This document shows, one piece after another, positions 44,737-64,000 of a stretch of 64,000 bases of DNA (positions are counted from its first letter, which is position 1; the number at the start of each line of letters is the position of its first letter). The notes beneath the pieces were generated by a model, which had not been told where the DNA came from, did not search any database, and worked only from the letters and a program-made list of their open reading frames with translations. The stretch lies in assembly GCA_028285585.1 (NCBI GenBank), contig JANQOU010000008.1, positions 116,298 through 180,297 on the forward strand. The letters are read 5' to 3'. This DNA is from Acidimicrobiia bacterium. Its GTDB lineage: Bacteria; Actinomycetota; Acidimicrobiia; Spongiisociales; ZC4RG35. A program made the position numbers and the translations under genes.

Positions 44737-44907
44737 TCGAATATAGGCGGTTGTCGCCCCTGATGTCAACGGGCTCTCTTTCGGACACGATCGGCGACCG
44801 GCAGGCAGAACTGCGACAGTCGGATCAGAGAAGTGGTCGCGACCCAATCTCACTGTATGAAGACCGCATGCGACGATCGCCGCAGCAGAGGCAGCTCTCG
44901 GATCTTG

Positions 44908-46971: not shown

Positions 46972-46996
46972 CGGCGGGTCGCTCCATAGCTATCGG

Positions 46997-47008
46997 GAAA
47001 TCGATTTC
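46997..47008. promoter_or_regulatory. LacI-type operator-like perfect palindrome GAAATCGATTTC
   Basis: 26 nt upstream of the hydrolase ATG. Confidence 0.55.
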
Positions 47009-47211
47009 ACACAATAGGACAGAATCGCGAAGGCTCCCAACCGCGAGACTTCGTCCAAACAAAGTCTGGACCGTTGAACCGGACCATCAAAGGCTGACGT
47101 CTATGATCCCTGCTTCGATTGCTACGCCATACCCTGCCAGACCGACCAGGACTTTCATGATGGGGCCCAGGCCTGGCAGAATTCTGCGGAACCTCGACTA
47201 TTGATACGCAA

Positions 47212-48201: not shown

Positions 48202-48279
48202 AACTCTCGTCGAACGGTTCACCTGACCTGTCGCAGCAATCTCCATCGTTTGACACATCGAGCACGCTCGACGTAGCCT

Positions 48280-48291
48280 GAAACCGATTTC
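48280..48291. promoter_or_regulatory. LacI-type operator-like site GAAACCGATTTC
   Basis: Upstream of the isomerase-like gene. Confidence 0.5.
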
Positions 48292-48357
48292 TCAGATGCG
48301 GAGGATTAGATCCTGAACACCCCAGACCTTCCCCCAAAGACGAGGAATGTCCATCTC

Positions 48358-49938
48358 GTGGCCAGCGGCGACGCTCGAGAACCTGCGAACATTGCCGGCT
48401 GGCCTGCCCAACAGCGTCTGGAGGCTGCCATCACCAAGGCGGCAGCTGAGCGCGGGGTCATCGTGAAGCGGGCAACCGAGCCGGACATTGCGCGCGGACA
48501 CGGATTCATTTCGAGCCAGCGAGAAGGTCTGGACCTCTTTGCAAGGATCGATCCCGACGACGCCATAATCATGGCGGAGGCCATCTGGCAGTTCAGTCAC
48601 CATGTCCACGGAGGCCTACTCCATCACAAGGGACCGGTGCTGACAGTGGCAAACTGGAGCGGGCAGTGGCCGGGGCTCGTTGGCCTGCTCAACCTCAATG
48701 CATCCCTAGCCAAGTCGGGGCGCGAGTATTCGACCCTCTGGAGCGAGAACTTCGACGATGACTTCTTTCTCAGCGGCTTTCAAGAGTGGCTCGAAACCGG
48801 CACAATCACTCACGACTCGTCGCACGTGCGACCTTTCGACCCTGATCAAGCAAAGGGAAAGGGTGGCACCGTCGGACGTGAAGCCGGAGAAAGCCTCCTC
48901 CGCTCGAAGTCGATCATCGGTGTCCTCGACGAAGGCTGCATGGGAATGCACAACGCCATCCTCGACGATCACTTCCTGCACGAAATCGGCATCTTCAAGG
49001 AGCGGCTGAGTCAAACGGCCTTGATCGCAGAGATGGAGCGTGTGGCCGACGAAGATGCGACGGCGGCAAGAGTGTGGCTCGAGGACCGTGAGTTTGAGTT
49101 CGTCACCGGTGAGGATCCGGAGACATCGCTGACCGACGAGCAGATTCACGCGCAATTGAAGATGTACATTGCGACCGGGCGCATTGCCGACCGCTACAGC
49201 TGCGACGCCATAGGAATCCAATACCAACTCGGCATGATCGATGTGGCTCCAGCCTCAGATCTCGCCGAGGGCCTCCTCAACAACAGCGAACGGCCGCCAA
49301 TCCTCAGAGTGTCGGACGGCGAGGAGATACTCCCCGGACGCCCTATCCCCCACTTCAACGAGGTCGATGAGGGCATTGCAGTAGATCTAGTGGCCACAAG
49401 CAGGATCTGGCCCGCTCTCGGGCTCGATCCGTCGGCGACACTTCACGACGTGCGTTGGGGCGAGGACTTCGATCTGCCCGGAGGAACAGAATTCGTGTGG
49501 ACGTTCATGATCTCCGGATCCGTACCGGCATCACACATCGACGGGGGGTACGCCTCAGCGAAGTCATACCGCCAGCCACCTATGTATTTTCGGTCGGGCG
49601 GGGGGACACTCAGCGGAGTCTGCCGTCCTGGGCCGGTCGTTTGGAGCCGGGTGTATCAGCTCCCCGACGGACTCCATGCCGACATTGGACTTGCAACTGC
49701 CGTTGAGCTCCCAGAAGCCGAAACGGAGAGAAGGCTGAAAGAGACCACACCTGAGTGGCCGATCATGCACGCCACGCTTCACGGCGTGTCGCGAGATCAG
49801 TTCATGGCGCGGCACAAGTCCAATCATGTGACGGTCGCCTACGCAGACTCACAGGAGGCAGCCAAGACAGCGCTAGAGGCCAAGGCGGCTTTCTTCGACC
49901 GGATCGGCATCACAGTTCACCTCTGTGGAATAACCTGA
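48358..49938 (+). CDS. L-fucose/L-arabinose isomerase-family-like protein
   Basis: LVASGDAREPAN...ANWSGQWPGLVGLLNLNASL resemble that family. The frame is open back to 48310 and GGAGGA at 48300-48305 sits 7 nt before CTG 48313, so the true start may be non-canonical and upstream. Confidence 0.55.
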   Translation: MASGDAREPANIAGWPAQQRLEAAITKAAAERGVIVKRATEPDIARGHGFISSQREGLDLFARIDPDDAIIMAEAIWQFSHHVHGGLLHHKGPVLTVANWSGQWPGLVGLLNLNASLAKSGREYSTLWSENFDDDFFLSGFQEWLETGTITHDSSHVRPFDPDQAKGKGGTVGREAGESLLRSKSIIGVLDEGCMGMHNAILDDHFLHEIGIFKERLSQTALIAEMERVADEDATAARVWLEDREFEFVTGEDPETSLTDEQIHAQLKMYIATGRIADRYSCDAIGIQYQLGMIDVAPASDLAEGLLNNSERPPILRVSDGEEILPGRPIPHFNEVDEGIAVDLVATSRIWPALGLDPSATLHDVRWGEDFDLPGGTEFVWTFMISGSVPASHIDGGYASAKSYRQPPMYFRSGGGTLSGVCRPGPVVWSRVYQLPDGLHADIGLATAVELPEAETERRLKETTPEWPIMHATLHGVSRDQFMARHKSNHVTVAYADSQEAAKTALEAKAAFFDRIGITVHLCGIT

Positions 49939-50014
49939 CCACTAGCGGCCACGGAAAGGTGTGGTCGCTGTGCGCTCGAGTTCTCGCTCAAAACCCTCTT
50001 GACTCTCACGTAGC

Positions 50015-50530
50015 GTGAGGGCATACGGTGTCGGCATGATCGAAGTGACCACACCTACGAGCAGCCAGGAGAATCCTGAGCTGCTCGGACAGCACGAGGG
50101 ATGGGACGTGTACCCCATGCCTGTCTTCGTGACCATCAACACCCCCGACGTCTCTCGCATGGCCAGCTGGTTCCGTGACGCGCTCGGATTCGGCGTCATG
50201 TTCGTCGGGCCGGACTCCGGCGACGGCCCGACAATGGTCCACATGCGACGCATGAAGTACCAGGACGTCCTCATTGCCGCGGGCCTCGAGCACAACATCG
50301 ACCGAGACAGGTCGCTCACAGTCACCTTTCAGGCCATGACGGACACCGAAGTCGACCTCTTGGCTGACCGGGCCGCCGGCCACGGCGATGTCGAAGGCCC
50401 GTACGACACCCCTTGGAACACCCGAGAGGTGACAATGATCGACCCCGATGGGCACCATTTTGTCTTCACTGGCCGGCGCACCGATGCGCCTGTGGGGAGT
50501 CTCGACGAAGCGACCGGGATCGACCAGTGA
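50015..50530 (+). CDS. VOC (glyoxalase/bleomycin-resistance) family protein
   Basis: 171 aa, paired beta-alpha-beta-beta-beta module character (WFRDALGFGVMF...IDPDGHHFVF). Confidence 0.7.
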   Translation: MRAYGVGMIEVTTPTSSQENPELLGQHEGWDVYPMPVFVTINTPDVSRMASWFRDALGFGVMFVGPDSGDGPTMVHMRRMKYQDVLIAAGLEHNIDRDRSLTVTFQAMTDTEVDLLADRAAGHGDVEGPYDTPWNTREVTMIDPDGHHFVFTGRRTDAPVGSLDEATGIDQ

Positions 50531-51288
50531 CCCGGCTGCGAACCGTCGGTGAAGTGGCAGCCTTGGCCGGCACCACCGTCCGAGCATTGCACCACTACGA
50601 CGAGATCGGTCTCCTGGAGCCCTCTGTGCGTAGCGCCACCGGATACCGCCTCTACGCCGAGACTGACATCGTCCGACTCCACTCAATCATCCACTGGCGG
50701 TCGCTCGGGATCGGGTTGGAGGAGATCGCGGACCTGATCGACGCTCCGGATGTCGACCTCGCCGTCGGGCTCAAACGCCAGCTCGAGCGGATGAGAGACC
50801 ACGCCAAAGACCTGGAAACAATGATCGAAGCCGTCGAAGCAACCATCGCCTCGCTGGAGAAGGGAGATGACATGACCGATGATGCCGTCCACAGCATGTT
50901 CAACGGATTCGACCCAAGTCGTCACGACGAGGAGGCCGAACAGAAGTGGGGCGACACTTCGGCGTACCATGAGTCTCAGCGACGAGTGGCGAGCTACAAC
51001 GCAGACGATTGGCAGCGTTTTGCAGACGAGAACGGTGCCAACATCGAAGAGTTCGTGGCTCTGATGAGGGATGGTGTCGACCCCGGCGACGAGGCCGCAG
51101 CCGAAGCGGCCAGAACACACGGCGAGCTCATCGATCGCTGGTTCTACCCGCTCCAACCTGAAACCCACCTTGGCCTTGCGGATGCCTACGTCGCCGACCC
51201 TCGATTCGAGTCCACCTACGAAGCCATTGCACCCGGGCTGGCCCGGTACATCAGCAATGCGATACAAGCTCTCCACACTGCCGACTAA
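50527..51288 (+). CDS. MerR-family regulator with TipAS-like C-terminal domain
   Basis: VGEVAALAGTTVRALHHYDEIGLL HTH. GTG 50527 overlaps VOC stop (GTGA); the longer ORF-track start overlaps the VOC gene. Confidence 0.85.
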   Translation: MTRLRTVGEVAALAGTTVRALHHYDEIGLLEPSVRSATGYRLYAETDIVRLHSIIHWRSLGIGLEEIADLIDAPDVDLAVGLKRQLERMRDHAKDLETMIEAVEATIASLEKGDDMTDDAVHSMFNGFDPSRHDEEAEQKWGDTSAYHESQRRVASYNADDWQRFADENGANIEEFVALMRDGVDPGDEAAAEAARTHGELIDRWFYPLQPETHLGLADAYVADPRFESTYEAIAPGLARYISNAIQALHTAD

Positions 51289-51691: not shown

Positions 51692-52177
51692 ATGAAGAAC
51701 CGGATGCACCCACGCACAGCTGTGGTGACGGCAATAGCAGCTCTTCTTGTCCTCGCCGCATGCACTCCCGCAAAGACATCAGACTTACCGGAGATCACGG
51801 ACGCCAGGGTGGGCCAGCCGACAGGCCCGAACGCTGCCCTCTATCTCACCGCCCGTGGCTACGGCAAGGCCGACACTCTCATCTCGGCGGCCACCGACGC
51901 CGCTGAGACCGCGGAGATCCACCAGACGACCTCAAACGACGACGGGACAATGGGTATGCAACCCGTGGGCTCGTTGGAGCTGCCTGCAGACGGTGAACTT
52001 GTCCTCGAACCAGGCGGCTACCACATCATGCTGCTCGGTGCGGACCGTCAAGACGTCGGAGCCATCGTCAAAGTCACTCTCACATGGAGCCAAGCCGGTG
52101 AGCAGACGATTGAGGCGGTGGTTGTCGACCCGTCGGAAACCATGGGAGACATGGATCACTCACACGCGGATCACTGA
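51692..52177 (+). CDS. Copper chaperone PCu(A)C lipoprotein
   Basis: Lipobox LAACT. Met/His motif region (TMGMQPV...GGYHIMLLG) typical of PCuAC/DUF461. Confidence 0.85.
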   Translation: MKNRMHPRTAVVTAIAALLVLAACTPAKTSDLPEITDARVGQPTGPNAALYLTARGYGKADTLISAATDAAETAEIHQTTSNDDGTMGMQPVGSLELPADGELVLEPGGYHIMLLGADRQDVGAIVKVTLTWSQAGEQTIEAVVVDPSETMGDMDHSHADH

Positions 52178-52217: not shown

Positions 52218-52670
52218 CTAGCTGGACTCTCTCCAGTCAGGACGATCCGGCGCGTCAGGCTCCCAGGCGCGGATGAAGGTCGTGACCGCCTTGATCTGCT
52301 CCGACGTCAACGGGCCGCCGAAGTCGAGCGAGTAGGCGTTCATCTGGCTTCCCGGCACACCGACTGCGATCAAGCCTTGGATCTGGTCGTCGGTGGCCAG
52401 CTGAAGAAACTGCATCGAGTTGAGAGCTGGAGCGAGCCCGCCCTCACCGTTCAGGCCGTGGCAAGAAGCGCAGTTGAACTCCCAGATCGATGAGCCCTGC
52501 TCCTGTAGCGACTCGAGTTGCAACTCACGGGACTCTGCCCTCGCGCTCGGCTCGAACCATCGGTAGAAGGGGAAGACCAGGGCCATCAGAAGCATGAGGA
52601 CCAACCCGACGACCATGACCCTGTTGGTGGACCGGTTGAGCTCTTCGTCGGTCTGGTAGTCGTAACCCAT
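52218..52670 (-). CDS. Membrane-anchored monohaem cytochrome c
   Basis: N-terminal TM, CASCH haem site, distal Met region (GSQMNAY). ATG 52670 overlaps Rieske stop by 1 nt. Confidence 0.85.
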   Translation of the reverse strand: MGYDYQTDEELNRSTNRVMVVGLVLMLLMALVFPFYRWFEPSARAESRELQLESLQEQGSSIWEFNCASCHGLNGEGGLAPALNSMQFLQLATDDQIQGLIAVGVPGSQMNAYSLDFGGPLTSEQIKAVTTFIRAWEPDAPDRPDWRESS

Positions 52671-53185
52671 CAGGCTTCGTGCCCCGAGTCTGTGCAAGAC
52701 GGCCCGGTGGCCGGCTCGTCGGCAGTGATGACACCAGGGGCAGGTCCTTCGATAACCGCTCCAGTGTCGATGTAGATCAAACCGTCCTCTTCGCCGATCT
52801 CAATCGGGTATTCGTCCATCCCCCTCGGTGCCGGCCCGGACCGGTAGTCGCCGGCCCTGTTGAACGTGGTGCCATGACAAGGACACTCGAATTGGCTCGA
52901 TGTGTTGCAGAAGGGAACGCGACACCCGAGATGGGTGCATTTCTCTGAGAGGGCTTTGACCTGACCGTCGATCCGAACCAGGTAGGCGCGGGCTTGGGGC
53001 ACCTCTATCGCACCAGTCTCAGGGACCGCTTCGGGCGGCACCGTCCTCACCTTGCCGCCGAAACCCGATGCTTCGAGCGGTTGGAGAAGGTCCCACGACG
53101 TCCAGATTCCGGCGGCTCCGATGAGAGTGATGCCCGCCTTCCACATGCGGGTCAGGAAGTCACGCCGGTTCAACATGTCACTCAT
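52670..53185 (-). CDS. Rieske [2Fe-2S] subunit with Tat signal
   Basis: RRDFLTRMW Tat motif; CTHLGC...CPCHG cluster boxes. Confidence 0.9.
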   Translation of the reverse strand: MSDMLNRRDFLTRMWKAGITLIGAAGIWTSWDLLQPLEASGFGGKVRTVPPEAVPETGAIEVPQARAYLVRIDGQVKALSEKCTHLGCRVPFCNTSSQFECPCHGTTFNRAGDYRSGPAPRGMDEYPIEIGEEDGLIYIDTGAVIEGPAPGVITADEPATGPSCTDSGHEA

Positions 53186-53727
53186 AGCTCACCGTGCCAT
53201 TCCTCCCAGGGCCAGACCCAGGCCCAGTTGGGACCTCGGAAAGCGAATCCAATGATGGTCAAGACAATCCAGAGGACCATGAAGGCGGTGAAGGTGTACA
53301 CGGCCACCTTTCGGTACTTCGGGTCGTGGAACGCCGTTCGATCGATGTACGGGAGGGCGACGAGCCCGATGATGATGGCTCCGGGTACCAAGACCCCCGC
53401 CACCAGGGGGTGGAAGTGGGCGAGCAGCTCTTGGAGCGCGACGAAGTACCAGGGCGCCTTCTCGGGGTTCGGCGTCACCGTCGGGTTGGCAATCTCCTTG
53501 AGAGGAGCGTCGAAAAGGACCGCCAGCACAAGCACGAGCAACAAAACGGCCAGAGCGGCGACGGCGTGCCGGACGAGCAGATGGGGCCAGACCATTGCCA
53601 TCTCGTCATCGGCCGGCCTCTTCTCCTCGCCCGCCGCAGGCTTGCCCGGCACCACACCGAGAACTCTCTGGCCTTTGATCACCTTTGGATCCCCCGATCC
53701 AATTGTCACTGGCTGCTGGTCACTCAT
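53182..53727 (-). CDS. Cytochrome b C-terminal part (b6f subunit IV-like)
   Basis: PEKAPWYFVALQELL (PEWY-type motif), 3 TM. Confidence 0.85.
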   Translation of the reverse strand: MSDQQPVTIGSGDPKVIKGQRVLGVVPGKPAAGEEKRPADDEMAMVWPHLLVRHAVAALAVLLLVLVLAVLFDAPLKEIANPTVTPNPEKAPWYFVALQELLAHFHPLVAGVLVPGAIIIGLVALPYIDRTAFHDPKYRKVAVYTFTAFMVLWIVLTIIGFAFRGPNWAWVWPWEEWHGEL

Positions 53728-54448
53728 CGGGTGATCCTTCGCTGGTCAGCATCGAGTCTTTCCTCCATCTCCAAAGATGAACAGCGAGCGTGAGTACAAC
53801 GGCCGCCGGGAGCACGGCGACGTGCAAGACGTAGAAGCGGATGAGGGTCGACGAGCTGACTGTCGTGCCTCCGACCAGAATCTCCTGCACGGTGTCGCCG
53901 ATGTAGGGGACGTACCCGGCCATCGAGGTCCCGACAGTGATCGCCCAGTACGCCAGCTGATCCCAAGGAAGCAGGTAGCCGGTGAACGACAACAGGAGGG
54001 TGAGCACCAGCAGAACCACGCCAATGACCCAGTTGAACTCCTTTGGCGACTTGTAGGCACCGCGATAGAAGACCCTGGCCATGTGTGCCGCCACCGCGAT
54101 GACCATCAGGTGGGCCGACCACCGATGGACGTTCCTCACGTATTGACCGAACGCCACGTCCGTCTGGATCGTCTGTATGTCGGTGTAGGCCTGGGCCGGG
54201 GACGGCACATAGAAGAACATGAGGTAGATGCCTGAGGCGATCAGCGACCCGAACAGCACGGCTGAGGCCACACCGAGATACCACGAGTACCGGAACCCGA
54301 TCTCCCTCTTGGGGACTTTCACCGGGTAGATGTGGAGGAAGAAGTTCGACCAGTGCCCAGCTGCTCGATCGCGCGGCGTCTTCCGATCCGGGTTGCGGAC
54401 TATCGACTTGCCGACAGTCGACTTCTTGAAGCGATCGATAATTGTCAT
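53720..54448 (-). CDS. Cytochrome b N-terminal part (b6-like, dihaem)
   Basis: Four-helix core with His pairs (RNVHRWSAHLMVIAVAAHMARVF...). ATG 54448 overlaps upstream TGA (ATGA). Confidence 0.85.
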   Translation of the reverse strand: MTIIDRFKKSTVGKSIVRNPDRKTPRDRAAGHWSNFFLHIYPVKVPKREIGFRYSWYLGVASAVLFGSLIASGIYLMFFYVPSPAQAYTDIQTIQTDVAFGQYVRNVHRWSAHLMVIAVAAHMARVFYRGAYKSPKEFNWVIGVVLLVLTLLLSFTGYLLPWDQLAYWAITVGTSMAGYVPYIGDTVQEILVGGTTVSSSTLIRFYVLHVAVLPAAVVLTLAVHLWRWRKDSMLTSEGSPDE

Positions 54449-56223
54449 GCCGGAACTCCCACACCAGTCCAGACACCCATGCTGAGGGCGTCGGTCGGAC
54501 ACCTTTCAATGCACAAGGCACACCTGATACAGCGCTCCTCGTCCAAGAGAAGAGCTGTGCTGCCACGCGCCGTCACGTCGACCCGCTCTGCCGGGACCAG
54601 CGAGATGACATCCACCGGGCAAACGTCCGAGCAGAGAGCGCAGAGGACGCACTTCTGGACATCGAGGAGGATGTTGCCGAAGCAACGCAAGCAGCGGCTC
54701 GCCTCGAGTCGAGCCATCTCCTCGGTGAACCCCGTATCAACTTCGGCTAGGCCGATACGCCGCCCGGTGTCGAGGGTTGGGACATCGACTCTGTCGTAAC
54801 GGTCGTAGGTGTCGTCGAAACGGTGGAAGTCGGGCACGACCTCCATGTGCCCACGGGTTCGATCTGGCACTTCGCCACCGAAATGCCGGTGAATGTCTTC
54901 GGCAGACCTTCGGCCGTCGGCGATGGCGTCGATCAAGGTCCGGGGGCCCTTGGCTGCATCTCCGCCCGACCAGATGCTCTCGATCGAGGATCTACCCGTC
55001 TCGGGGTCTATCTGAATGGTCCTCCTCGGCGAGATGTCAGGGCCGTCGGGACCCAAGGCGTCGAGATCGATTGCCTGTCCGATGGCCAAGATGACTGTGT
55101 CTGCATCGAGGACGCTTCTGTCCTCCTGGTCGAACTCGGGGGCGAAACGGCCTTCGGAGTCGAACACCGAGAGCACCCCTATCGTCTCCAAGCCGGTCAC
55201 CGTGTTTGTCTCGCCGGTGACGATTCTCGCCGGGCCTCGGCGGTGGACGAACTTGATCCCTTCCTTCTCGGCCTCTTCGATCTCAAACTCATGCGCAGGC
55301 ATCTCCTTGCGGTTCTCCAGGGAGATCACCGTGATGTCGCGAGCTCCGGCACGGGCCGCGGTTCGGGCCGCATCGAAGGCGACTTGGAGAGATGGGCCCT
55401 CATCGTCGTGAACACCTCTGTCGGCGGCAGCCGAGTACTCGTCGGCCCTCAAGGCTGTTCTGGCAGCGTCCATGGCGACGTCTCCGCCACCGATGACGAC
55501 AACTCGCTCGCCGACTTCCACCTCGAAGCCACGGTTCATGTTGATGAGAAACTCGATGGCGCGGAACACACCGTCGGCCTCGTTGCCTTCGATGTCGAGG
55601 CCCCGCCCCAGCGTGGCGCCGATCGCCAGGAACAGAGCGTCATGACGCTCGCGTAGCTCACCGAGAGAGACGTCATGTCCCAGACGCGTGTCGTACTCGA
55701 CTTCAACGCCGAGGCTGAGAATGGCGTCGACGTCGCGCTGCAGGACGTCTCTATCAAGCCGATACTCCGGGATCCCCAGCCACATCGCCCCGCCCAGCTT
55801 GTCCGTGGCCTCATACACGGTGACCTGATACCCCCACTTGCGCAGGTCATGAGCGGCAGCCAAGCCCGCGGGACCGCCGCCGACGATGCCGACGCTTTCT
55901 GCCCTTTCGACTGGAGGAGGGGAGGCCACCGTCTTCCAGGCCTCGCCGTCGACTTCCGTCCCGTACTTCTCCGTCACGAAGCGCTTCAGCGCTCGAATTG
56001 CTATCGGCTTGTCGATCTCGCCGCGCCGACAGGCGTCTTCACAGGGCGCGGCACAGACACGGCCGCAGACCGAGGCGAAAGGGTTGGGGAGACGGGCGGT
56101 CATGTAGGCCAACTCGTCGTTGCCGTCTGCGATGGCAGCCACATACATGCCCGCGTTGGTGTGGACTGGGCAGGCAGCGAGACACGGGATATTCTGGTCG
56201 TAGAAGTGGAGATCCCAGCTCAT
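54445..56223 (-). CDS. GltD-like FAD/NAD(P)-binding oxidoreductase with N-terminal Fe-S site and two C-terminal ferredoxin-type [4Fe-4S] motifs
   Basis: PCLAACPVHTN...CGRVCAAPCEDACRRG, dinucleotide fold IVGGGPAGLAAAHDL and VVVIGGGDVAMD, C-terminal CVLCALCSDVCP and CIRCALCIERCP. ATG 56223 overlaps upstream TGA. Confidence 0.85.
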   Translation of the reverse strand: MSWDLHFYDQNIPCLAACPVHTNAGMYVAAIADGNDELAYMTARLPNPFASVCGRVCAAPCEDACRRGEIDKPIAIRALKRFVTEKYGTEVDGEAWKTVASPPPVERAESVGIVGGGPAGLAAAHDLRKWGYQVTVYEATDKLGGAMWLGIPEYRLDRDVLQRDVDAILSLGVEVEYDTRLGHDVSLGELRERHDALFLAIGATLGRGLDIEGNEADGVFRAIEFLINMNRGFEVEVGERVVVIGGGDVAMDAARTALRADEYSAAADRGVHDDEGPSLQVAFDAARTAARAGARDITVISLENRKEMPAHEFEIEEAEKEGIKFVHRRGPARIVTGETNTVTGLETIGVLSVFDSEGRFAPEFDQEDRSVLDADTVILAIGQAIDLDALGPDGPDISPRRTIQIDPETGRSSIESIWSGGDAAKGPRTLIDAIADGRRSAEDIHRHFGGEVPDRTRGHMEVVPDFHRFDDTYDRYDRVDVPTLDTGRRIGLAEVDTGFTEEMARLEASRCLRCFGNILLDVQKCVLCALCSDVCPVDVISLVPAERVDVTARGSTALLLDEERCIRCALCIERCPTDALSMGVWTGVGVPA

Positions 56224-57068
56224 ATCCGCTTCTCCCGCTGGAACCACCACAAGCCCAGGATGCCGATGCCCAGGGCACCGGCCCAGACGGCTGTCGTAAC
56301 GAAGTCTTGGACGCCTCTCGGCAGCCGGGTCATCACCTCTGTGGACAGCAGAAGTGAAGGCAGGAAGACAGTGGTTGCGGCGAAGTACACCACTATGAGC
56401 CCGCCCTTCAGAGCCGCATCGAGCCGATTCGGGCTCCTGCGATCGATGACTCCGATGATCCGCGGCGCGAGGACCCAGAGGGCGATCCCGATCGCGATGA
56501 GATAGGCAACGGAACTGAAGGTCCCGACCACCGCAGGAAGCGTGGTCCCGGCTACGGGGCCTGCGCTCTCCGGCGCGGGTGGCGTGCCGCCGGGGACAAC
56601 GAGGTCGTTCTGGAGGAAAGCGATGACTGCGTCGACCTGGTCGTCGTCGAGTGTGCCGAACGAGGGCATGACAGCGTCATAGGTCTCGCCGTTGACTTCG
56701 ATGGGACCGGATAGGCCATTCTGGATGACCTCTCGCAGGTAGTCGGTGTCGTCGATGCGCGGGTTGCCCTTCAAAGGTGGAAAGGCACCCGAGAGGCCGA
56801 GGCCGCTGGGCTGATGACAGGAGGAGCAATTGTTTGTGTAGACCTGCTGACCCTGTGCTAGTTGCTCCGTGTTCTGGTCATCGCCGGACTGCGCCAAGCC
56901 GGTGACCGGTATCAGAAGAAAGGCGATGAATGCGACCACAAGCACCAAGGTGCCCGTGCGGGGGCTCCTCCACTTGTCATCCGCTCTCGCGGCGTCCACC
57001 CGGACCTCCTGTGATCGCGTCGAATCCACAAGATGGACCCGTCCCCTCCATGGTCTACGAGGAGACAC
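56220..57068 (-). CDS. Monohaem cytochrome c with C-terminal multi-TM domain
   Basis: Signal/anchor, CSSCH, Met region (DAVMPSF), then about 3 hydrophobic helices. Start position uncertain. Confidence 0.8.
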   Translation of the reverse strand: MSPRRPWRGRVHLVDSTRSQEVRVDAARADDKWRSPRTGTLVLVVAFIAFLLIPVTGLAQSGDDQNTEQLAQGQQVYTNNCSSCHQPSGLGLSGAFPPLKGNPRIDDTDYLREVIQNGLSGPIEVNGETYDAVMPSFGTLDDDQVDAVIAFLQNDLVVPGGTPPAPESAGPVAGTTLPAVVGTFSSVAYLIAIGIALWVLAPRIIGVIDRRSPNRLDAALKGGLIVVYFAATTVFLPSLLLSTEVMTRLPRGVQDFVTTAVWAGALGIGILGLWWFQREKRI

Positions 57069-57172
57069 TTCAATCGGAAGGGCCTTTTGGCCCTATTGGC
57101 TCGCAACATCCGTCAGCAACCTTGCACAGGACAGGTTGAGAAGATGGGAGTTTCGTGACGACCGAGTCGGAA

Positions 57173-57307
57173 ATGGCGCCTAGCTCCGAGCAGGAGCACT
57201 TCAAGCCGGTGGGGACGGTGTTCATCCTCGCCGCTTTCGTGCTCACCATCATCCTGCTGTGGGGCTCGGTCTACTTGATTCTGTTGAGTCGGGGCGCAAC
57301 CGGATGA
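57173..57307 (+). CDS. cbaD: ba3-type cytochrome c oxidase subunit IIa (not in ORF track)
   Basis: Hand translation MAPSSEQEHFKPVGTVFILAAFVLTIILLWGSVYLILLSRGATG; pattern KP.G...TI..W..VY....RG as in Thermus CbaD. TGA overlaps subunit II ATG (ATGA). Alternative GTG start at 57155. Confidence 0.65.
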   Translation: MAPSSEQEHFKPVGTVFILAAFVLTIILLWGSVYLILLSRGATG

Positions 57308-57834: not shown

Positions 57835-59495
57835 CGGTCTCCGACGTGAAGGTGGGCTATGAGCTGACGACGAAGGAGAAGCGGTTCATCGGATGGCACA
57901 TCCTGGTTGCCGTCCTCGCTCTCCTGATAGGCAGCCTCATGGGGCCGCTTCAATCGTTCGAGTTCTCAGGGCTGAACCTCTATCGATACCTGGAGCCCAT
58001 CCTTCAGGACTACTACCAGGGCCTCACGCTGCACGGAGTCCTCAACGCTCTCGTCTGGACGACCTTCTTCATCGTCGGGTTCACGAACCTGACGACCATC
58101 AAGGGACTGGGCCGACCGCTGTCTCACCCGCTGGTGAACAAGATCGGCTTCTGGACGATGCTGACCGGGCTGGTGATGACAGCCGTGCCTCTGCTGCTGG
58201 GCGAAGCCACGGTGCTCTACACCTTCTACCCGCCACTCGAAGCCAGCTGGGCGTTCTATCTGGGATTGACCCTCGTCGTAGTCGGAAGCTGGATCGAGGG
58301 GTACGGGTTCTTCCTCACCTACCGCGGCTGGCGCAAGGACAACCCCGGCGTGCGGTCACCGTTCATCGCCTTCGCCGGCGTCCTCAACATGGCCATGTGG
58401 CAGATCGCCACGCTCGGCATAGCGGTCGAGATCCTGACCATGCTCCTCCCCTGGTCGGTCGGGCTCATCGATGCCACCGATCCTGAGCTGGCCCGGACCT
58501 ATTTCTGGTTCACCGGGCACCCTCTTGTCTACTTCTGGCTGCTGCCGGCATACATCTCCTGGTACGCGATGCTGCCCAAGCAGGCCGGGGGCAAGCTGTT
58601 CAGCGACTCGCTGGCGCGGCTCGCGTTCTGGCTGTTCCTGCTGGTCTCGATTCCCGTCGGGTTCCACCATCAGTTCGTCGATCCCGGAATCCCGGAAGGC
58701 TGGAAGTGGATACATGCGGGGCTCACCTACGCAGTGTTCTTCCCATCGATGCTGACTGCGTTCACGGTCATTGCCTCGCTCGAGCACGCTGCCAAGCAGC
58801 GCGGCGGCAAAGGGCTGGTCGGGTGGATTCGCGCCTTGCCGTGGTCGGATCCGTCGGTGTCGGCACAGCTTCTCGCCGGGATTCTGTTCATGTTTGGCGG
58901 CATCGGGGGGCTGGTCAACGCCAGCTACAACATCAACACCGTCATCCACAACACGGCTTGGGTGCCGGGGCACTTCCACCTCACCGTCGCCACAGCGGTG
59001 ACACTCTCGTTCATTGGCATCAGCTACTGGCTGGTCCCACATCTCTCCGGGAGGAAGCTGTGGAAGCCCAAATGGGCCGTGATTCAGACGTGGACGTGGT
59101 TCGTGGGAATGATCATCTTCTCCAATGCGATGCACGTCCTTGGCCTGCTCGGAGCGCCGCGGCGGACCCCGTTGGGGCAAGCTCCGTACGTTCCCGAGGA
59201 GTGGGCCGGCCACCTTCTCCGGGTGAGCATCGGTGGCGGCATCCTCTTCATCGCCGTGATCATGTACGTCTGGACCATGTACAAGACGGTTCGCGGCCCG
59301 AAGGTCGACCCCTCCGAGGTTCCCGAAGTGCCGATCGCCGAATCGATGCGTCATCCACAGCTCACCCCGGCCTGGCTCGATACCTTCAAGCCTTGGCTCA
59401 TCGGAGCGATCGTGCTGATCCTGGTGGCCTACGGCCCACAGCTGTTCGAGCAGATCTCAAACATCTCTCTGAACTCACCCGGCATCGGTCCGTAG
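57831..59495 (+). CDS. cbaA: ba3-type (B-family) cytochrome c oxidase subunit I
   Basis: YFWFTGHPLVYFWLLPAY and other haem-copper oxidase blocks closely resembling Thermus ba3 subunit I. Confidence 0.9.
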   Translation: MTVSDVKVGYELTTKEKRFIGWHILVAVLALLIGSLMGPLQSFEFSGLNLYRYLEPILQDYYQGLTLHGVLNALVWTTFFIVGFTNLTTIKGLGRPLSHPLVNKIGFWTMLTGLVMTAVPLLLGEATVLYTFYPPLEASWAFYLGLTLVVVGSWIEGYGFFLTYRGWRKDNPGVRSPFIAFAGVLNMAMWQIATLGIAVEILTMLLPWSVGLIDATDPELARTYFWFTGHPLVYFWLLPAYISWYAMLPKQAGGKLFSDSLARLAFWLFLLVSIPVGFHHQFVDPGIPEGWKWIHAGLTYAVFFPSMLTAFTVIASLEHAAKQRGGKGLVGWIRALPWSDPSVSAQLLAGILFMFGGIGGLVNASYNINTVIHNTAWVPGHFHLTVATAVTLSFIGISYWLVPHLSGRKLWKPKWAVIQTWTWFVGMIIFSNAMHVLGLLGAPRRTPLGQAPYVPEEWAGHLLRVSIGGGILFIAVIMYVWTMYKTVRGPKVDPSEVPEVPIAESMRHPQLTPAWLDTFKPWLIGAIVLILVAYGPQLFEQISNISLNSPGIGP

Positions 59496-59502
59496 ACGGC
59501 AG

Positions 59503-61665
59503 ATGGACGGCGGCGGCGAGGCGAGAGACCCCGCCAAGCATCCCTACATCGATGGACTGGCCCGTGTCACGTTTGCCGCGGAGTCACCGGTGCGGCGGTT
59601 GGTCGGGTCCGGCCGGCTCAACCCGCTTCCGCATGCCGGGACCATCAGCGTGGTCCTCTTCATCATCGTGGTGATCACCGGGGTCTACATCACCCTGTTC
59701 TTCGAATTCGGCTTCGAGGCCTCGCATCGTTCGGTGGAGAGGCTGACGTCGCATCCGATTCAACGGTTCATGCGGAGCCTGCACCGGTACTCGTCAGCCG
59801 CACTCGTGCTGACGACAGTCGTTCATGGCTGGAGGATCTTCGTCGCGTCGCGATTCAATGGGCCACGGCGTTGGCGATGGTTGACCGGCCTCAGCGCCCT
59901 TCTGGTCGTCTTCCTGGCCGGTGTGACCGGCTACTGGCTGCTTTGGGACGAACGGGCCCAGCTTCTCAACGAGGCGACTGCCTCTGTGTTCGACGACCTG
60001 GGGCTGGACACGGTCGTCGTCAGCTCTGTCCTCACCGCCGATGGCAGTGGCTGGCAGGTCTTGTTGCTGATCTGGTTCGTCCACCTGCTCACCACCGCCG
60101 TGATCGGATGGTTCCTATGGAGGCACCTCCGCCGGACAAGTCTGCCGTGGCTGCCACCTCGTCTGTGGACCTGGCTGATGGTCGGTGCGCTGGGGCTCGT
60201 GTCGATCGCGTTTCCGGCAGAGCTCCTTCGGATCGCAGATCCTTCGAATCTCGTCGACAGCGTGCCGGTCGACCCCTTCTTCCTGTTCTTGCTTCCAGGC
60301 CTTGCCGCTCTCCCCGGGCCGCTGGTGTTGGCAGTGTTCGGATCGATCTCGGCTTTCGTGGCTGGCCTCCCGTGGCTGCTGGCACGCGGCAAGTCCCAGG
60401 TGGTGACAATCGACGCCAACCTGTGCACCGGATGCGAACTGTGTGTTGTCGACTGTCCTTATCGCGCCCTTCAGATGATCTCGCTAGGCGAGCGAGTGAT
60501 CGCCGAGGTCGACCCGGCGTTGTGTGTCGCCTGCGGCATCTGCATCGGATCATGCGTCTTCGACGCCATCGACCTTCCCGGTGCCACACTCCCCCAAGCC
60601 GCCGACATCGCAGGCCGCGATGTGGTGGTCACCTGTGAGCGGCACCGGCAGCTGAGCGGAGTGAATGATCGCTACGTTCTCACCGTCCGCTGCGCGGGTG
60701 TGGTGAGTCCAACAGCGCTCACGAGGCTCCTCAAGAAGGGTGCCCGGTCGGTGCAGGTCGTCGGCTGCCCGCCAGCGGACTGTGCGTTTGGAGTCGGCAA
60801 TCAACTGGCCGAGGAGCGGATGTCAGGTGAGCGCCGTCCCCATGTGCCGCGGGGCTCTGCCGCCATGATCAGCCGCGACTTCGTGGCGCCTACCGCACTC
60901 GAGCACGCCATTGCAACGCCCGGGACCCACCTATCGGCCGACCCCCACGACATCCCCAGAAATCGAGTGCGGATCGGCATGACCGGTGCGATCGTGCTCG
61001 GCTCAATGCTCCTGGTCGGTCTTGCCACGACCATCGCCCTGACCGTCAACCGGCCGGAGGCCGCGGTCCTCGTCGTGGTCCACCACAAACCCGGAGCGGA
61101 GATCGCCGGCACCGGTGTGACCAGTGGATCTGTCGGCACACCCACGGTCCTCAGGACCGCCATCGGAGCTGCGCAGCCCACGGAAGAGCAGATCGGAGAC
61201 GGCGGTGTGGCGTCTGCCGTCGTCGAGTTGGCAGCTGACGCCGGGGAGACCCACCTGCTGATCGAACTGCTGGAGGGCGGAGACAGGACCGTCATCCAGG
61301 ATGGCAGCGTGCAGCTTGCTGCCGGTCGGCGCCTCGTGGTGATTGTGGAGGACGAGGTCAATGTGGACGCCGAGCTGGGCCGCCAGATCTTCGAGTCCTC
61401 CAAGGCAGGCTGCACCGTTTGCCACTCCGTCGACCCCGGCGTCGAGTTGGTTGGCCCGAACCTGTCAGATATGGGGACCGTGGCTGCGAGCAGAGCCCCC
61501 GGGTTGTCGGCCGAGGAGTATCTCTTGGAGTCGATCGTGGATCCGGACGCCTTCTTGGTCGACGGCTACCGGTCCGGGCAGATGCTGGATATCTATGAGG
61601 AGACTCTCACGAGTAGGGAAATCGAAGCACTAGTTGCATACTTGCAATCGCTGGAGGTCGAATGA
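59503..61665 (+). CDS. Multidomain fusion: dihaem cytochrome b domain + 2x[4Fe-4S] ferredoxin + MvhD/FlpD-like domain + TM + monohaem cytochrome c
   Basis: His94/His108 and His194/His208 each 14 residues apart in TM helices. Also CTGCELCVVDC and CVACGICIGSC; VVVTCERH...VRCAG...VVGCPPADCAFGVGNQLAEER; TM at residues 493-515; CTVCH with downstream Met. Starts 7 nt after the cbaA stop. Confidence 0.8.
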   Translation: MDGGGEARDPAKHPYIDGLARVTFAAESPVRRLVGSGRLNPLPHAGTISVVLFIIVVITGVYITLFFEFGFEASHRSVERLTSHPIQRFMRSLHRYSSAALVLTTVVHGWRIFVASRFNGPRRWRWLTGLSALLVVFLAGVTGYWLLWDERAQLLNEATASVFDDLGLDTVVVSSVLTADGSGWQVLLLIWFVHLLTTAVIGWFLWRHLRRTSLPWLPPRLWTWLMVGALGLVSIAFPAELLRIADPSNLVDSVPVDPFFLFLLPGLAALPGPLVLAVFGSISAFVAGLPWLLARGKSQVVTIDANLCTGCELCVVDCPYRALQMISLGERVIAEVDPALCVACGICIGSCVFDAIDLPGATLPQAADIAGRDVVVTCERHRQLSGVNDRYVLTVRCAGVVSPTALTRLLKKGARSVQVVGCPPADCAFGVGNQLAEERMSGERRPHVPRGSAAMISRDFVAPTALEHAIATPGTHLSADPHDIPRNRVRIGMTGAIVLGSMLLVGLATTIALTVNRPEAAVLVVVHHKPGAEIAGTGVTSGSVGTPTVLRTAIGAAQPTEEQIGDGGVASAVVELAADAGETHLLIELLEGGDRTVIQDGSVQLAAGRRLVVIVEDEVNVDAELGRQIFESSKAGCTVCHSVDPGVELVGPNLSDMGTVAASRAPGLSAEEYLLESIVDPDAFLVDGYRSGQMLDIYEETLTSREIEALVAYLQSLEVE

Positions 61666-62123: not shown

Positions 62124-62780
62124 ATGCGGCCTCTCTTCAAGTGGCTGATCGGGTTCGGGCTTGTCGTCGTGCTGTCAGTGATGGCGTTTGCGATCTTCGA
62201 GCCAGTGCAGGTCCTCCCCCGGCTTCGCATCGGCCCTGGTTTCGCTCTGGTCGACCAGTCGGGCATGTCGCTCACCTCTGAGGATGGGCGCGGTGCGGTG
62301 ACCCTCTACACCTTTCTTCCCAGCGACTGCCTCGATGACTGCTCGTCCGTGAACGAGACGATGGCACAAGTCGGCGAGCGGGTGGCCTCACTGGATCTCG
62401 GGGACGCCGAATTCCGGCGGGTGACCGTGGCTCTCGACACCGACGAACCATCCGCACTGACCGCAGCAGCCGAGGCATCAGGAGCAGACGGCACGAGTTG
62501 GCGGTGGATCGGTGGGGACAATGAGACCTTGCGAACCGTGGTCGGCGAGGGGTTCGGCGTGTACTTCGAGGACACCGAGGACGGGGTGGCCTTCGACCCG
62601 GTCTACATAGTCGTGGATGGCAACGGGCTCGTTCGCGGTGACTACCGATACTCGACTCTCGCCTCCGATGCCGATCGGCTCACCAGGCACATCTCAATCC
62701 TCGCCGAGGAGTTGAGAAACGCGTCCGGTGCGGCTTCTCTCGTCTATGAGGCCGCCCACGTCTTTCTCTGTTACCCATGA
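62124..62780 (+). CDS. SCO1/SenC-like thioredoxin-fold protein (divergent)
   Basis: ATG 62124 gives TM anchor + FLPSDCLDDC (CxxxC). The 154-aa N-terminal extension in the ORF track is antisense to the lipoprotein gene. Confidence 0.65.
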   Translation: MRPLFKWLIGFGLVVVLSVMAFAIFEPVQVLPRLRIGPGFALVDQSGMSLTSEDGRGAVTLYTFLPSDCLDDCSSVNETMAQVGERVASLDLGDAEFRRVTVALDTDEPSALTAAAEASGADGTSWRWIGGDNETLRTVVGEGFGVYFEDTEDGVAFDPVYIVVDGNGLVRGDYRYSTLASDADRLTRHISILAEELRNASGAASLVYEAAHVFLCYP

Positions 62781-63418
62781 GCATCGACACTGCTCCTAAG
62801 CCAGTCCGCGAACCGCGACCTCGGCGATGGGCCTTGCCCGTGCTGGGCGCTGCGCTGGGTGTAGTGCTGGCTATCGCCGTGCTCTCCGTGTTTCGCCCTC
62901 ACGTGTTCTCAGGTGTCGTGTTGCAATCTTCGGATCCGGCACCATCCATGGAGCCCCTGGCCTATACCGACGGGGAGCCCGTGGACATAGCCGCACTCCA
63001 GGGCAACGTGGTGTTCGTCCACTTCGGCTTCACCTACTGCCCGGATGTCTGCCCGTTGACGATGGCCACCGTGAGCAGGGCGATCGACTCGTTGGAGCCC
63101 GACGACGCGCAGAGAGTCGAAACCATCATGGTGACGGTCGACCCGCACCGTGACTCGCCGGCAGCTCTCAACGACTACCTGGCGAACTTCGACGCCCGAT
63201 TCCGCGGAGTGTGGGGCGAAGAGGGCGATGTCCGTTCGGTAGCGACCCGGTACGGCGTCACTTTCGAGTACGGCGAAGAAAACGCCGACGGGCAGTACGA
63301 CGTCATCCACACTGCCTCACTGATGGTCATCGACCCCGACGGTGCTCTTCGCATCGTCTATCCGTTCGGAGTCACTCCCGAAGAGTTGAGCGCAGACCTC
63401 CGGCAGCTGCTGAACTGA
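62777..63418 (+). CDS. SCO1/SenC family copper chaperone
   Basis: TM anchor, FVHFGFTYCPDVCP (CxxxC), downstream conserved His (VIHTAS). Confidence 0.9.
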   Translation: MSIDTAPKPVREPRPRRWALPVLGAALGVVLAIAVLSVFRPHVFSGVVLQSSDPAPSMEPLAYTDGEPVDIAALQGNVVFVHFGFTYCPDVCPLTMATVSRAIDSLEPDDAQRVETIMVTVDPHRDSPAALNDYLANFDARFRGVWGEEGDVRSVATRYGVTFEYGEENADGQYDVIHTASLMVIDPDGALRIVYPFGVTPEELSADLRQLLN

Positions 63419-63469: not shown

Positions 63470-63787
63470 CTAAGAAACGGCCTCACCTCGAGAGTGAGGG
63501 CGAATCCGGCGGACCTCATCGCCCTCGTCCTGTTGGGCGTAGTACAGGTCCCATCGCATTTGACCGTTCATCCAGAAGCCACTCGAAGTGCCAAAGTACT
63601 GCGAGAGTCGCAATGCGGTGCTCGGTGTCATCCCGCGGCGCCCGTTGACGATCTCGTTGACCCTCTGATACGGCACACCAATGCCATTCGCCAGCTCCCG
63701 CTGAGTTATCCCCAAGGGTATGAGGAACTCTTCAAGCAACATCTCACCTGGGTGAGTAGGGACTCGGTTGGCAGGAACACGGACCAT
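63470..63787 (-). CDS. higA: HigA-family antitoxin (XRE HTH)
   Basis: HPGEMLLEEFL...GITQRELANGIGVPYQRVNEIVNGRRGMT typical HigA. Confidence 0.85.
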   Translation of the reverse strand: MVRVPANRVPTHPGEMLLEEFLIPLGITQRELANGIGVPYQRVNEIVNGRRGMTPSTALRLSQYFGTSSGFWMNGQMRWDLYYAQQDEGDEVRRIRPHSRGEAVS

Positions 63788-63795
63788 GTTTCTCC

Positions 63796-64000
63796 TCAGT
63801 GATAGTCGACCACTTCAACATCGACCGGACCCGAATCCGTCCAATAGAAACAGATCCGATACTGAACATTGATCCGAATGCTGTGCTGACCGCTGCGATC
63901 TCCCCGAAGGGCCTCCAGTTGGTTCCCAGGAGGTACCCGCAAGTCATCGAAGATCTCGGCCTGATCGAGCGCATCGAGCTTCCTCGCAGTCACCTTCCAC
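63796..64000 (-). CDS. higB: HigB/RelE-type toxin (5' end beyond window end)
   Basis: ...NQLEALRGDRSGQHSIRINVQYRICFYWTDSGPVDVEVVDYH is a typical HigB C-terminus; the frame is open to the window edge. Confidence 0.75.
   Translation of the reverse strand, partial: WKVTARKLDALDQAEIFDDLRVPPGNQLEALRGDRSGQHSIRINVQYRICFYWTDSGPVDVEVVDYH

Follow-up and report, generated by a model that had tools for sequence, protein, structure and literature searches.

A cytochrome b-[4Fe-4S]-MvhD-cytochrome c fusion protein from the ba3 oxidase operon of an Acidimicrobiia bacterium belongs to a family linked to B-type heme-copper enzymes

In a stretch of 64,000 nucleotides (nt) from an Acidimicrobiia bacterium (contig JANQOU010000008.1 of assembly GCA_028285585.1, positions 116,298 to 180,297), called the window below, the operon for a ba3-type cytochrome oxidase contains a gene for a 720-amino-acid (aa) fusion protein. 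It combines, in order, a cytochrome b part with six transmembrane (TM) helices, two [4Fe-4S] ferredoxin motifs, an MvhD-like domain, a seventh TM helix (TM7), a β-sandwich, and a cytochrome c domain. This one polypeptide carries the predicted ligands for six redox centers, arranged along the chain as outer heme b, inner heme b, two [4Fe-4S] clusters, an MvhD-type [2Fe-2S] cluster, and heme c. The family to which it belongs is a constant companion of B-type heme-copper enzymes in at least six phylum-level groups, and its companions in these groups reduce O2 or, presumably, nitric oxide (NO). The fusion protein is probably a dedicated electron transfer partner of these enzymes. We favor the reading in which it would serve the ba3 oxidase as a redox partner of its own, probably as one of the subunits, and would wire the cytoplasm to the CuA site; we give this reading a probability of roughly 0.4.

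An earlier reading of the window, made from the sequence alone (the sequence-only reading), had described a 720-aa open reading frame (ORF) starting 7 nt after the cbaA stop as the fourth gene of the ba3 operon. The six-frame ORF list and the junction sequence agree with this: the cbaA stop TAG (59493 to 59495) is followed by 7 nt (acggcag) and then by the fusion ATG at 59503, and the gene is indeed the fourth, since a 50-aa cbaD-like ORF with a single TM helix precedes cbaB. The TGA stop of the fusion gene and the start codon of the gene that follows share the sequence ATGA (61662 to 61665). The operon order is cbaD-like, cbaB, cbaA, fusion, SCO-like, and SCO, with all junctions of 7 nt or less or overlapping. 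A scan of the operon region found no promoter-like site and no terminator-like hairpins at the gene junctions; the few hairpins within cbaB and cbaD are at chance level. The ORF is intact, and a search of 5.8 billion proteins found 413 homologs. Domain sets were read for the best 120 of these, which are mostly 670 to 790 aa long (many, 700 to 790 aa) with the same Pfam domains, and mostly come from metagenome-assembled genomes (MAGs) of Acidimicrobiia, where they are labeled unspecifically, for example as "hydrogenase iron-sulfur subunit" or "cytochrome b N-terminal domain-containing protein." Homologs with the fusion come from independent sources (NCBI, JGI, ENA, and Logan assemblies). With the intact ORF, the independent homologs, and 34 loci that have the fusion, an artifact of frameshift or misassembly joining separate genes is ruled out for practical purposes, and the fusion stands as a single gene.

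We investigated the gene context of the family in 34 genome loci retrieved with the window protein, 80 retrieved with the distant member P0213, and four more contigs retrieved as encoders of P0209, P0252, P0213, and P0226. The loci were screened by tblastn with the window proteins and the proteins of loci L032, L037, and L038 as queries. The linkage count was restricted to the 79 loci that have 4.5 kb or more of sequence upstream; L035 and L036 are short contigs with no upstream context. A COX1 gene was found on the same strand, at most 4.5 kb upstream of the fusion gene, in 79/79 loci, so the linkage to oxidase genes noticed in the window is conserved in its relatives. The linked loci span Acidimicrobiia, Anaerolineales, Alpha-, Gamma-, and Deltaproteobacteria, Nitrospirota, Nitrospinota, and Polyangiaceae. 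The typical gene order is COX2, COX1, fusion, SCO-like, and SCO in Acidimicrobiia, and COX2, COX1, (UbiA heme O synthase), SCO, and fusion in Proteobacteria and others.

The upstream enzymes are of two types. In the window-like loci (L001 to L030), subunit I has the sequence GHPLVYFW with its His-Tyr pair, as in a true ba3-type oxidase. The window CbaA matches subunit I of the Thermus thermophilus ba3 oxidase with an E value of 1e-142, and the CuA motif of CbaB, CTEFCGIGHAAM, with the pattern CxExCGxxHxxM, was read directly from the sequence. The roles of these residues in CbaA and CbaB are those established for ba3 oxidases. With GHPLVY rather than a Gln signature, and with a CuA-bearing subunit II, the window partner is a B-family (ba3) oxidase. 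In L032 to L118, the upstream COX1 instead has GH[SQ]SQQ[IV]N, in which the active-site Tyr is replaced by Gln. This replacement has been described as the signature of eNOR (PMC8756737), and eNOR, a relative of the B family, was shown to reduce NO (PMC11214002). The ba3-type partners are found in Acidimicrobiia and Anaerolineales, and the eNOR-type partners in Proteobacteria, Nitrospirota, and Nitrospinota. Many of the loci L032 to L118 also have a second, downstream COX1-like gene with GHxLQF, and the deltaproteobacterial and Polyangiaceae loci have an additional weak COX1-like gene of 490 aa upstream of COX2.

In 15 loci, two fusion paralogs flank a NuoF-like gene (Complex1_51K, SLBB, and NADH_4Fe-4S domains). 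This arrangement points to an NADH-binding flavoprotein as the docking partner of the MvhD/Fe-S module and to a dimeric cytochrome b part. The triad was seen in L037 (4617 to 10121) and also in L039 to L053, from Nitrospirota, Nitrospinota, and Thermodesulfovibrionia, and sits between an eNOR-type operon and a second COX1-like/UbiA/SCO set. Thioalkalivibrio denitrificans ALJD (L068, 10148 to 14300), a cultured carrier and possible experimental system, has two tandem cytochrome b-FeS-MvhD paralogs after an eNOR-type COX2-COX1-UbiA-SCO set. A homolog from a Magnetospirillum MAG was recovered as locus L117.

Protein domains were judged against Pfam gathering cutoffs (GA) and NCBIfam equivalog cutoffs. 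Conservation was read from a close alignment of 35 homologs of the fusion protein (44 to 76% identity) and from distant family members at 22 to 37% identity. The sequence-only reading had proposed a diheme cytochrome b bundle with two His pairs, further TM helices, two CxxCxxCxxxC ferredoxin motifs, an MvhD-like segment, another TM helix, and a C-terminal CxxCH cytochrome c domain, with the Fe-S/MvhD part inside and the cytochrome c outside. All of these held up in the analyses described in this and the following paragraphs, and the four assigned domains (Cytochrome_B, Fer4, FlpD/MvhD, and Cytochrom_C) each score above the Pfam cutoff in the profile search. Cytochrome_B matches residues 44 to 150 with 37.0 bits (GA, 27.2). 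The two heme-ligand pairs, H94/H108 and H194/H208, are each 14 residues apart, and all four His residues are invariant in the close alignment and still at 22 to 37% identity. On the established topology of bc1 and b6f complexes, H94/H194 would bind the outer heme and H108/H208 the inner heme. The NCBIfam models for cytb_ExtP (69.6 bits) and cytochrome b6 (60.4 bits) both score far below their equivalog cutoffs and therefore indicate domain-level resemblance only. Extra heme sites at H44, H84, H476, and H528, as possible pairs on either face of the membrane, were considered and rejected; these residues are invariant or nearly so in Acidimicrobiia but unconserved in Anaerolineales and Proteobacteria.

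Structure prediction of the protein alone gave the same fold. The AlphaFold2 (AF2) model built from the alignment has a mean predicted local distance difference test score (pLDDT) of 79.9 and a predicted template modeling score of 0.71, and Foldseek against the PDB finds cytochrome b chains at a probability of 1.00. The matches are full-length cytochromes b, from actinobacterial QcrB and from mitochondria, with 290 to 360 columns aligned (for example, 8q1b_C, with a root mean square deviation of 4.5). Since these alignments span the two further TM helices, the helices appear to be the equivalents of helices E and F of long cytochrome b or subunit IV, a resemblance that the sequence-only reading had not remarked on.

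This part of the protein also holds what is plausibly a retained but altered Qo-like pocket. D257-P258-F259-F260 (nt 60271 to 60282) sits where the Qo (PEWY) motif would be and has Phe instead of the usual Trp. P255, D257, P258, and F259 are invariant in the close alignment; the family-wide consensus at the motif position is DxFY, and L032 reads DGWY. The cd-loop sequence TGYWLLWD resembles TGYLLPWDQ of the window's own cytochrome b6, and its G143 and D149 are invariant at 22 to 37% identity. Pfam Cytochrom_B_C has no match in the fusion protein. In hhalign, residues 212 to 300 against the neighboring subunit IV family put DPFF on APWY, a weak match (P = 0.03, probability of 1.6%), and subunit IV homology of helices E and F from this profile-profile comparison is kept as suggestive.

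Such a pocket raises the possibility that the protein oxidizes quinol. Menaquinol would be oxidized there, next to the outer b heme and without a Rieske protein; one electron would go through cytochrome c and CuA to O2 (to NO in the eNOR operons), and the other would go inward through the b hemes, the [4Fe-4S] clusters, and MvhD to ferredoxin or, via a flavoprotein, to NAD(P)+. A strong oxidant would thereby drive the making of a low-potential reductant. The conserved TGYWLLWD, the family-wide G143 and D149, the Asp at the Qo motif position, and the retention of helices E and F fit this bifurcation. NuoF-like and GltD-like proteins, which were found as partners at the loci, are flavoproteins of flavin-based bifurcating enzymes. 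Similar logic has been proposed for the anammox complexes of Rieske/cytochrome b and NAD(P) oxidoreductase (PMC12954380, PMC5600118), and a complex of this type is encoded next door and co-conserved. However, the core family without the c domain has no Rieske protein or other high-potential first acceptor, and Trp, which no other Qo residue surpasses in conservation, has given way to Phe, Leu, or Ile. Helices E and F resemble the subunit IV profile only weakly (P = 0.03), no system is known to bifurcate electrons to NAD(P)+ or ferredoxin at a Qo-type site, and the inward electron flow would oppose the membrane potential. We regard Rieske-less quinol bifurcation as the main alternative but as unlikely, and it is slightly less likely still that the fusion protein and its oxidase or NO reductase together form a Qo-type bifurcating machine which splits menaquinol between the heme-copper enzyme and the Fe-S/MvhD chain.

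The cytoplasmic module is as well conserved as the hemes. Fer4 matches two stretches within residues 301 to 357 (33.6 bits; GA, 21.1), and Fer4_7 scores 28.4 bits. All eight Cys residues of the two motifs, C308xxC311xxC314xxxC318 and C341xxC344xxC347xxxC351, are invariant in the close alignment and family-wide at 22 to 37% identity, and PDB matches of the domain include FwdF, MvhB, and the C-terminal ferredoxin domain of HdrA. The FlpD/MvhD profile matches residues 392 to 441 with 41.0 bits (GA, 22.3; profile positions 30 to 79 of 123). C378, C397, C422, and C427, the presumed [2Fe-2S] site, are invariant in the 35 homologs, and three MvhD Cys residues are still invariant at 22 to 37% identity. 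In phmmer alignments to the MvhD chains 9sfi_K, 9sw2_D, and 5odc_D, C397 and C427 fall on Cys in all three and C422 falls on Cys in 9sw2_D and 5odc_D, the residue being printed as X in 9sfi_K. In NCBIfam, the C-terminal Fer4-plus-MvhD region of HdrA2 (572 to 728) was matched below its equivalog cutoff. The invariance of the b heme His residues, the eight ferredoxin Cys residues, and the three MvhD Cys residues among distant members argues that the cytoplasmic module is essential. The fusion protein is not a hydrogenase or Hdr subunit; neighbor annotation, which covered the 43- to 64-kb stretch of the window, found no hydrogenase or Hdr genes there.

Hydropathy shows six N-terminal helices and a seventh at about 488 to 517, and no more. 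TM7 corresponds to helix 488 to 508 in the AF2 model and to helix H2-30 in a separate model of the C-terminal part (pLDDT of 83), and brings the chain back to the outer face. The ratios of K+R to D+E are 4/0, 4/0, and 2/0 in the cytoplasmic loops 112 to 128, 206 to 222, and 290 to 300, and 1/7 and 0/3 in the outer loops 147 to 185 and 244 to 262. In this topology test, proposed with the sequence-only reading, the positive-inside charge bias places the N terminus, the loops after helices B, D, and F, and the Fe-S/MvhD part (about 300 to 470) in the cytoplasm and everything after TM7 outside.

The β-sandwich between TM7 and cytochrome c, unmentioned by the sequence-only reading, consists of seven strands over about 100 residues on the outer face and is present in all family members. 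Foldseek returns generic immunoglobulin (Ig)-, CBM20-, and FN3-like folds only (best E value, 3e-3), and the 50 best matches listed include no cupredoxin or PCuAC fold. Conserved metal ligands are lacking, and H527/H528 are unconserved beyond the close clade. The cytochrome c domain that follows matches Cytochrom_C at residues 624 to 717 (25.3 bits; GA, 21.3), and its heme ligands, C637xxC640H641 and the axial M694, are invariant in the 35 homologs. Its PDB matches are the diheme protein 7zs1 (E value, 8e-17) and, second, 1w2l (E value, 9e-8), a chain of 99 aa whose deposit names it cytochrome oxidase subunit II and which we take to be the cytochrome c domain from the caa3 oxidase of Rhodothermus marinus.

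A TM protein with two [4Fe-4S] clusters and a C-terminal Ig-like domain resembles CcoG/FixG in outline, and the fusion protein might be a biogenesis or maintenance factor of B-type heme-copper enzymes, serving as a Cu(II)-to-Cu(I) reductase, in SCO/PCuAC-dependent CuA assembly, or in heme A/As formation. The order COX2, COX1, UbiA-family heme O synthase, SCO, and fusion in the eNOR-type operons, the two SCO genes after the fusion gene and the PCuAC gene close by in the window, and the cofactor-less Ig-like sandwich as outer domain fit such a role. Against it, the fusion protein has no match to the FixG or CcoG profiles in Pfam or NCBIfam at an E value of 1 or less, and a relationship to CcoG/FixG was rejected on this ground and on the match of the sandwich to generic Ig/CBM/FN3-like folds only. 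The bc-type diheme core with Qo-like elements, the paralog pairs with an NADH module, and the fused cytochrome c with 1w2l, the subunit II deposit, as a relative look respiratory. We consider a biogenesis role improbable.

The wider family is large, and the cytochrome c domain is optional in it. In an exhaustive second search of 50%-identity cluster representatives, 315 clusters were found at E values of 1e-30 or less and 1,186 at 1e-10 or less. Many listed representatives of 620 to 750 aa match residues of about 35 to 450 only, i.e., cytochrome b, Fer4, and MvhD. CxxCH is present in only 3/24 diverse representatives, the three nearest to the window protein, and the cytochrome c domain is missing from L030 and L031 (both Chloroflexi), from L032, and from most of the distant relatives. 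It was seen only in members from Acidimicrobiia and Anaerolineales and in none of the members checked from Proteobacteria, Nitrospirota, and Nitrospinota. The domain is thus a lineage-specific addition in the subgroup of the window protein, and the conserved core function therefore cannot depend on it. Acidimicrobiia and Anaerolineales are generally regarded as single-membrane bacteria and hence as lacking a soluble periplasmic cytochrome c. Because both carrier lineages are of this kind, the tethered c domain could be a stand-in for the soluble cytochrome c of double-membrane bacteria.

The sequence-only reading had noted that no Rieske protein is part of the unit. There is none in the operon from cbaD to SCO, but a complete Rieske/cytochrome b6 operon lies divergently adjacent and had been overlooked. 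It encodes two membrane-anchored cytochromes c, a GltD-like Fe-S/FAD/NAD(P) protein, cytochrome b6, subunit IV, and the Rieske protein, and is an "anammox-type" Rieske/cytochrome b complex with NAD(P) oxidoreductase in an aerobic actinobacterium. Its cytochrome b6 has no heme-ci-binding Cys, since WYLGV stands where ci-binding relatives have WCMGG. This operon is co-conserved with the ba3-fusion operon in 17 to 18 of 31 window-like loci from two phyla, divergently upstream in Acidimicrobiia, whereas in Anaerolineales it lies downstream and has the same orientation; L001 to L003 lack it over the roughly 7.7 kb upstream. Being adjacent and co-conserved, it means that the oxidase is not left without a Rieske-dependent route.

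The presence of this complex allows for another role of the fusion protein, as a menaquinone-reducing dehydrogenase anchor like the diheme succinate:menaquinone reductases or HdrDE-type enzymes. Electrons would pass from the Fe-S wire through the b hemes to a quinone site, the quinol would be consumed by the adjacent Rieske/cytochrome b complex, and the fused cytochrome c would be a mere tethered shuttle from that complex to ba3. The window cluster would then encode a whole NAD(P)H-to-O2 chain, and a NuoF-like partner is present at some loci. A cytoplasmic Fe-S wire with diheme b is also the standard design of such anchors, and has been argued for the ancestral cytochrome b (PMC5600118). Yet this leaves unexplained why heme-copper enzymes are linked in 79/79 loci while Rieske/cytochrome b genes adjoin the fusion gene in just 3/84 of the distant, eNOR-type loci, and it does not account for the outer-face β-sandwich kept in all members. 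An anchor function is thus improbable.

In the wire that we prefer, electrons would enter the cytoplasmic MvhD/[4Fe-4S] module from a flavoprotein or ferredoxin donor, with the neighboring GltD-like NAD(P) protein as a candidate in the window and the NuoF-like NADH module in relatives. They would then traverse the membrane by way of the inner b heme and next the outer one, and exit through the tethered cytochrome c to CuA of CbaB. The net result would be a Rieske-independent path to O2 that bypasses the quinone pool, and the Qo-like pocket (TGYWLLWD and DPFF) may additionally permit menaquinol exchange. All steps would be thermodynamically downhill. We favor this path because the cytoplasmic module is as conserved as the heme ligands, because an NADH module recurs as a neighbor, and because the c domain, whose solved relatives include the cytochrome oxidase subunit II deposit 1w2l, was seen only in Acidimicrobiia and Anaerolineales, taken as single-membrane lineages. 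Several points weigh against it. The bc1 complexes are built so that electrons have no direct path between the outer b heme and the c heme. The Qo-like elements would be dispensable for a pure export wire and would suit quinol oxidation better. A flavoprotein partner is missing from most of the proteobacterial operons screened, and in eNOR-type operons the fusion gene follows the biogenesis genes for heme O synthase and SCO. Finally, the adjacent Rieske/cytochrome b complex, with its two membrane-anchored cytochromes c, could serve ba3 in the absence of the fusion protein.

Table 1. Coordinates of the fusion gene, its parts, and its neighbors in the window
Feature	Position (nt)	Strand	Basis or remark
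Fusion gene	59503-61665	+	One uninterrupted 720-aa ORF in six-frame ORF list
Cytochrome b four-helix bundle, aa 44-210	59632-60132	+	Pfam, NCBIfam, Foldseek
Two further TM helices, aa 220-292	60160-60378	+	Helices E/F equivalents; Foldseek, hhalign
2x[4Fe-4S] ferredoxin domain, aa 300-358	60400-60576	+	Pfam Fer4, Fer4_7, Fer4_6
MvhD/FlpD-like domain, aa 372-445	60616-60837	+	Pfam FlpD, phmmer
TM7, aa 488-517	60964-61053	+	Hydropathy peak of 2.23 at residues 497-515
β-Sandwich, aa 519-617	61057-61353	+	AF2 strands, block pLDDT of 82-93
Class I cytochrome c domain, aa 620-720	61360-61662	+	Pfam Cytochrom_C
cbaD-like peptide, 50 aa, single TM	57155-57307	+	MTTESEMAPSSEQEHFKPVGTVFILAAFVLTIILLWGSVYLILLSRGATG; small-ORF list
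cbaB, CuA site	57259/57304-57834	+	Pfam COX2
cbaA	57831-59495	+	Pfam COX1
SCO-like protein, 372 aa	61662-62780	+	Pfam SCO1-SenC, 38 bits
SCO1/SenC, canonical, CPDVC	62777-63418	+	Pfam, 127 bits; start overlaps preceding stop
Divergent Rieske/cytochrome b6 operon	52218-57068	-	Pfam
Cytochrome c with C-terminal TMs	56220-57068	-	
GltD-like Fe-S/FAD/NAD(P) protein, 601 aa	54445-56250	-	
Cytochrome b6	53720-54502	-	
Subunit IV, APWY replacing PEWY	53182-53727	-	
Rieske protein	52670-53185	-	
Second cytochrome c	52218-52697	-	
PCu(A)C copper chaperone	51692-52177	+	Pfam PCuAC, 90 bits
HTH_3 (Xre-type) protein	63470-63787	-	Just after 65-aa ORF (63796-63993)

The other genes of the island are listed in Table 1. 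The 50-aa ORF at the start of the ba3 operon, which probably encodes subunit IIa (CbaD), ends in a stop codon that overlaps an ATG inside the cbaB ORF, and cbaB probably starts at this ATG (57304) rather than at the GTG at 57259. The gene after the fusion gene encodes about 150 acidic low-complexity residues, one TM helix, and a divergent SCO1/SenC domain with CLDDC. The SCO-like/SCO pair follows the fusion gene in the Acidimicrobiia loci and lies upstream of COX2 in the Anaerolineales loci. With the PCu(A)C gene at the far end of the Rieske operon, the respiratory island of about 12 kb is bracketed by CuA assembly genes. Right after the operon, the HTH_3 gene and the 65-aa ORF (63470 to 63993, minus strand) look like a HigB/HigA-type toxin-antitoxin module. 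Upstream of the island (43192 to 51288) are sugar utilization genes (a solute-binding protein, a GHL6/fucosidase-like protein, a LacI regulator, and a fucose isomerase-like protein) and a MerR/TipAS regulator, a region unrelated to the fusion gene.

If the fusion protein is a true partner, the ba3 oxidases of Acidimicrobiia and Anaerolineales and the recently defined eNORs have an unrecognized conserved redox subunit that reaches the cytoplasm; for the eNORs, this would concern many Proteobacteria, Nitrospirota, and Nitrospinota. It would change how their electron supply is drawn, estimates of their energy yield, and models of aerobic denitrification and N2O production. The fusion protein also offers a second, simpler system, Rieske-less and in one polypeptide, in which to test electron transfer from a bc-type cytochrome b to a cytoplasmic Fe-S/flavin chain, a debated idea that until now was put forward for no other system than the anammox complexes, which are hard to handle. 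Should bifurcation be true after all, aerobes and aerobic denitrifiers, including those of the Nitrospirota/Nitrospinota type with the fusion-NuoF-fusion triad, would make low-potential reductant directly from quinol.

The sequence-only reading knew of no characterized enzyme with this architecture. None is characterized, but the architecture itself had been noticed before (PMC4122944, PMC5600118, PMC8756737), and the window protein is a cytochrome c-bearing, ba3-linked form of it. Kao and Hunte (2014) gave the name "PDWF-FeS" to a clade in which cytochrome b is joined to a 4Fe-4S and an MvhD domain and the gene cluster holds no Rieske gene, and reported a cytochrome b with PDWF-FeS domains from the cultured Magnetospirillum magneticum AMB-1 (PMC4122944). 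The window protein shares with this clade a cytochrome b fused to 4Fe-4S and MvhD domains and a Rieske-less cluster, and plausibly also the C-terminal part of cytochrome b where the Qo-type motif lies; it differs in having DPFF, in adding a C-terminal cytochrome c, and in sitting with a true O2-reducing ba3 oxidase. The clade probably overlaps with the large cytochrome b proteins of "subfamily H" of Dibrova et al. 2017 (PMC5600118). A Chloroflexi protein with cytochrome b6, DMSOR-beta-like Fe-S, FlpD, and "C1" cytochrome c is listed in Table A3 of PMC8756737 as an isolated case. The operon link to heme-copper enzymes is not mentioned in these three papers or in the eNOR paper PMC11214002, and a targeted full-text literature search, of incomplete coverage, found no paper describing it for MvhD/FlpD fusions. 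The family-wide link to B-family and eNOR operons thus appears to be new.

Among the closest known systems are the anammox Rieske/cytochrome b complexes, for which quinol-driven NAD(P)+ reduction has been proposed (PMC5600118, PMC12954380). In Kuste4569-74 and Kustd1480-85, the inner heme is proposed to feed a cytoplasmic Fe-S chain in place of a Qi site. The neighboring Rieske/GltD-like operon of the window is of the same type, whereas the fusion protein, having no cognate Rieske protein in its operon, is not a Rieske/cytochrome b complex. It also lacks a flavin or NAD(P) domain, its cytoplasmic chain includes an MvhD-type cluster, and this chain and cytochrome b are in one polypeptide. The order of two [4Fe-4S] clusters and MvhD is the same as in HdrA2 (572 to 728), and the MvhD Cys residues align with those of the MvhD subunit of Mvh-Hdr. 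In solved Mvh-Hdr complexes, the Fer4-plus-MvhD module is the electron adaptor between the donor enzyme and the flavoprotein; here, it is fused to a membrane-bound cytochrome b, and the operon is one for aerobic respiration. At the other end of the chain, the caa3 oxidases, with cytochrome c fused to subunit II, have a class I cytochrome c beside CuA as the immediate donor, the place proposed here for the c domain, while the ba3 oxidase of T. thermophilus works with the soluble c552. In contrast to caa3, the window c domain is carried not by subunit II but by a separate seven-TM redox protein, via a β-sandwich spacer. The NADPH oxidase/FRD family, MsrQ, and NapH/NosH/CcoG combine a cytoplasmic donor module, b hemes or [4Fe-4S] clusters, and an outer acceptor. 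Their design logic is alike by analogy, but the folds are unrelated, and the Pfam and NCBIfam searches found no match of the fusion protein to these families.

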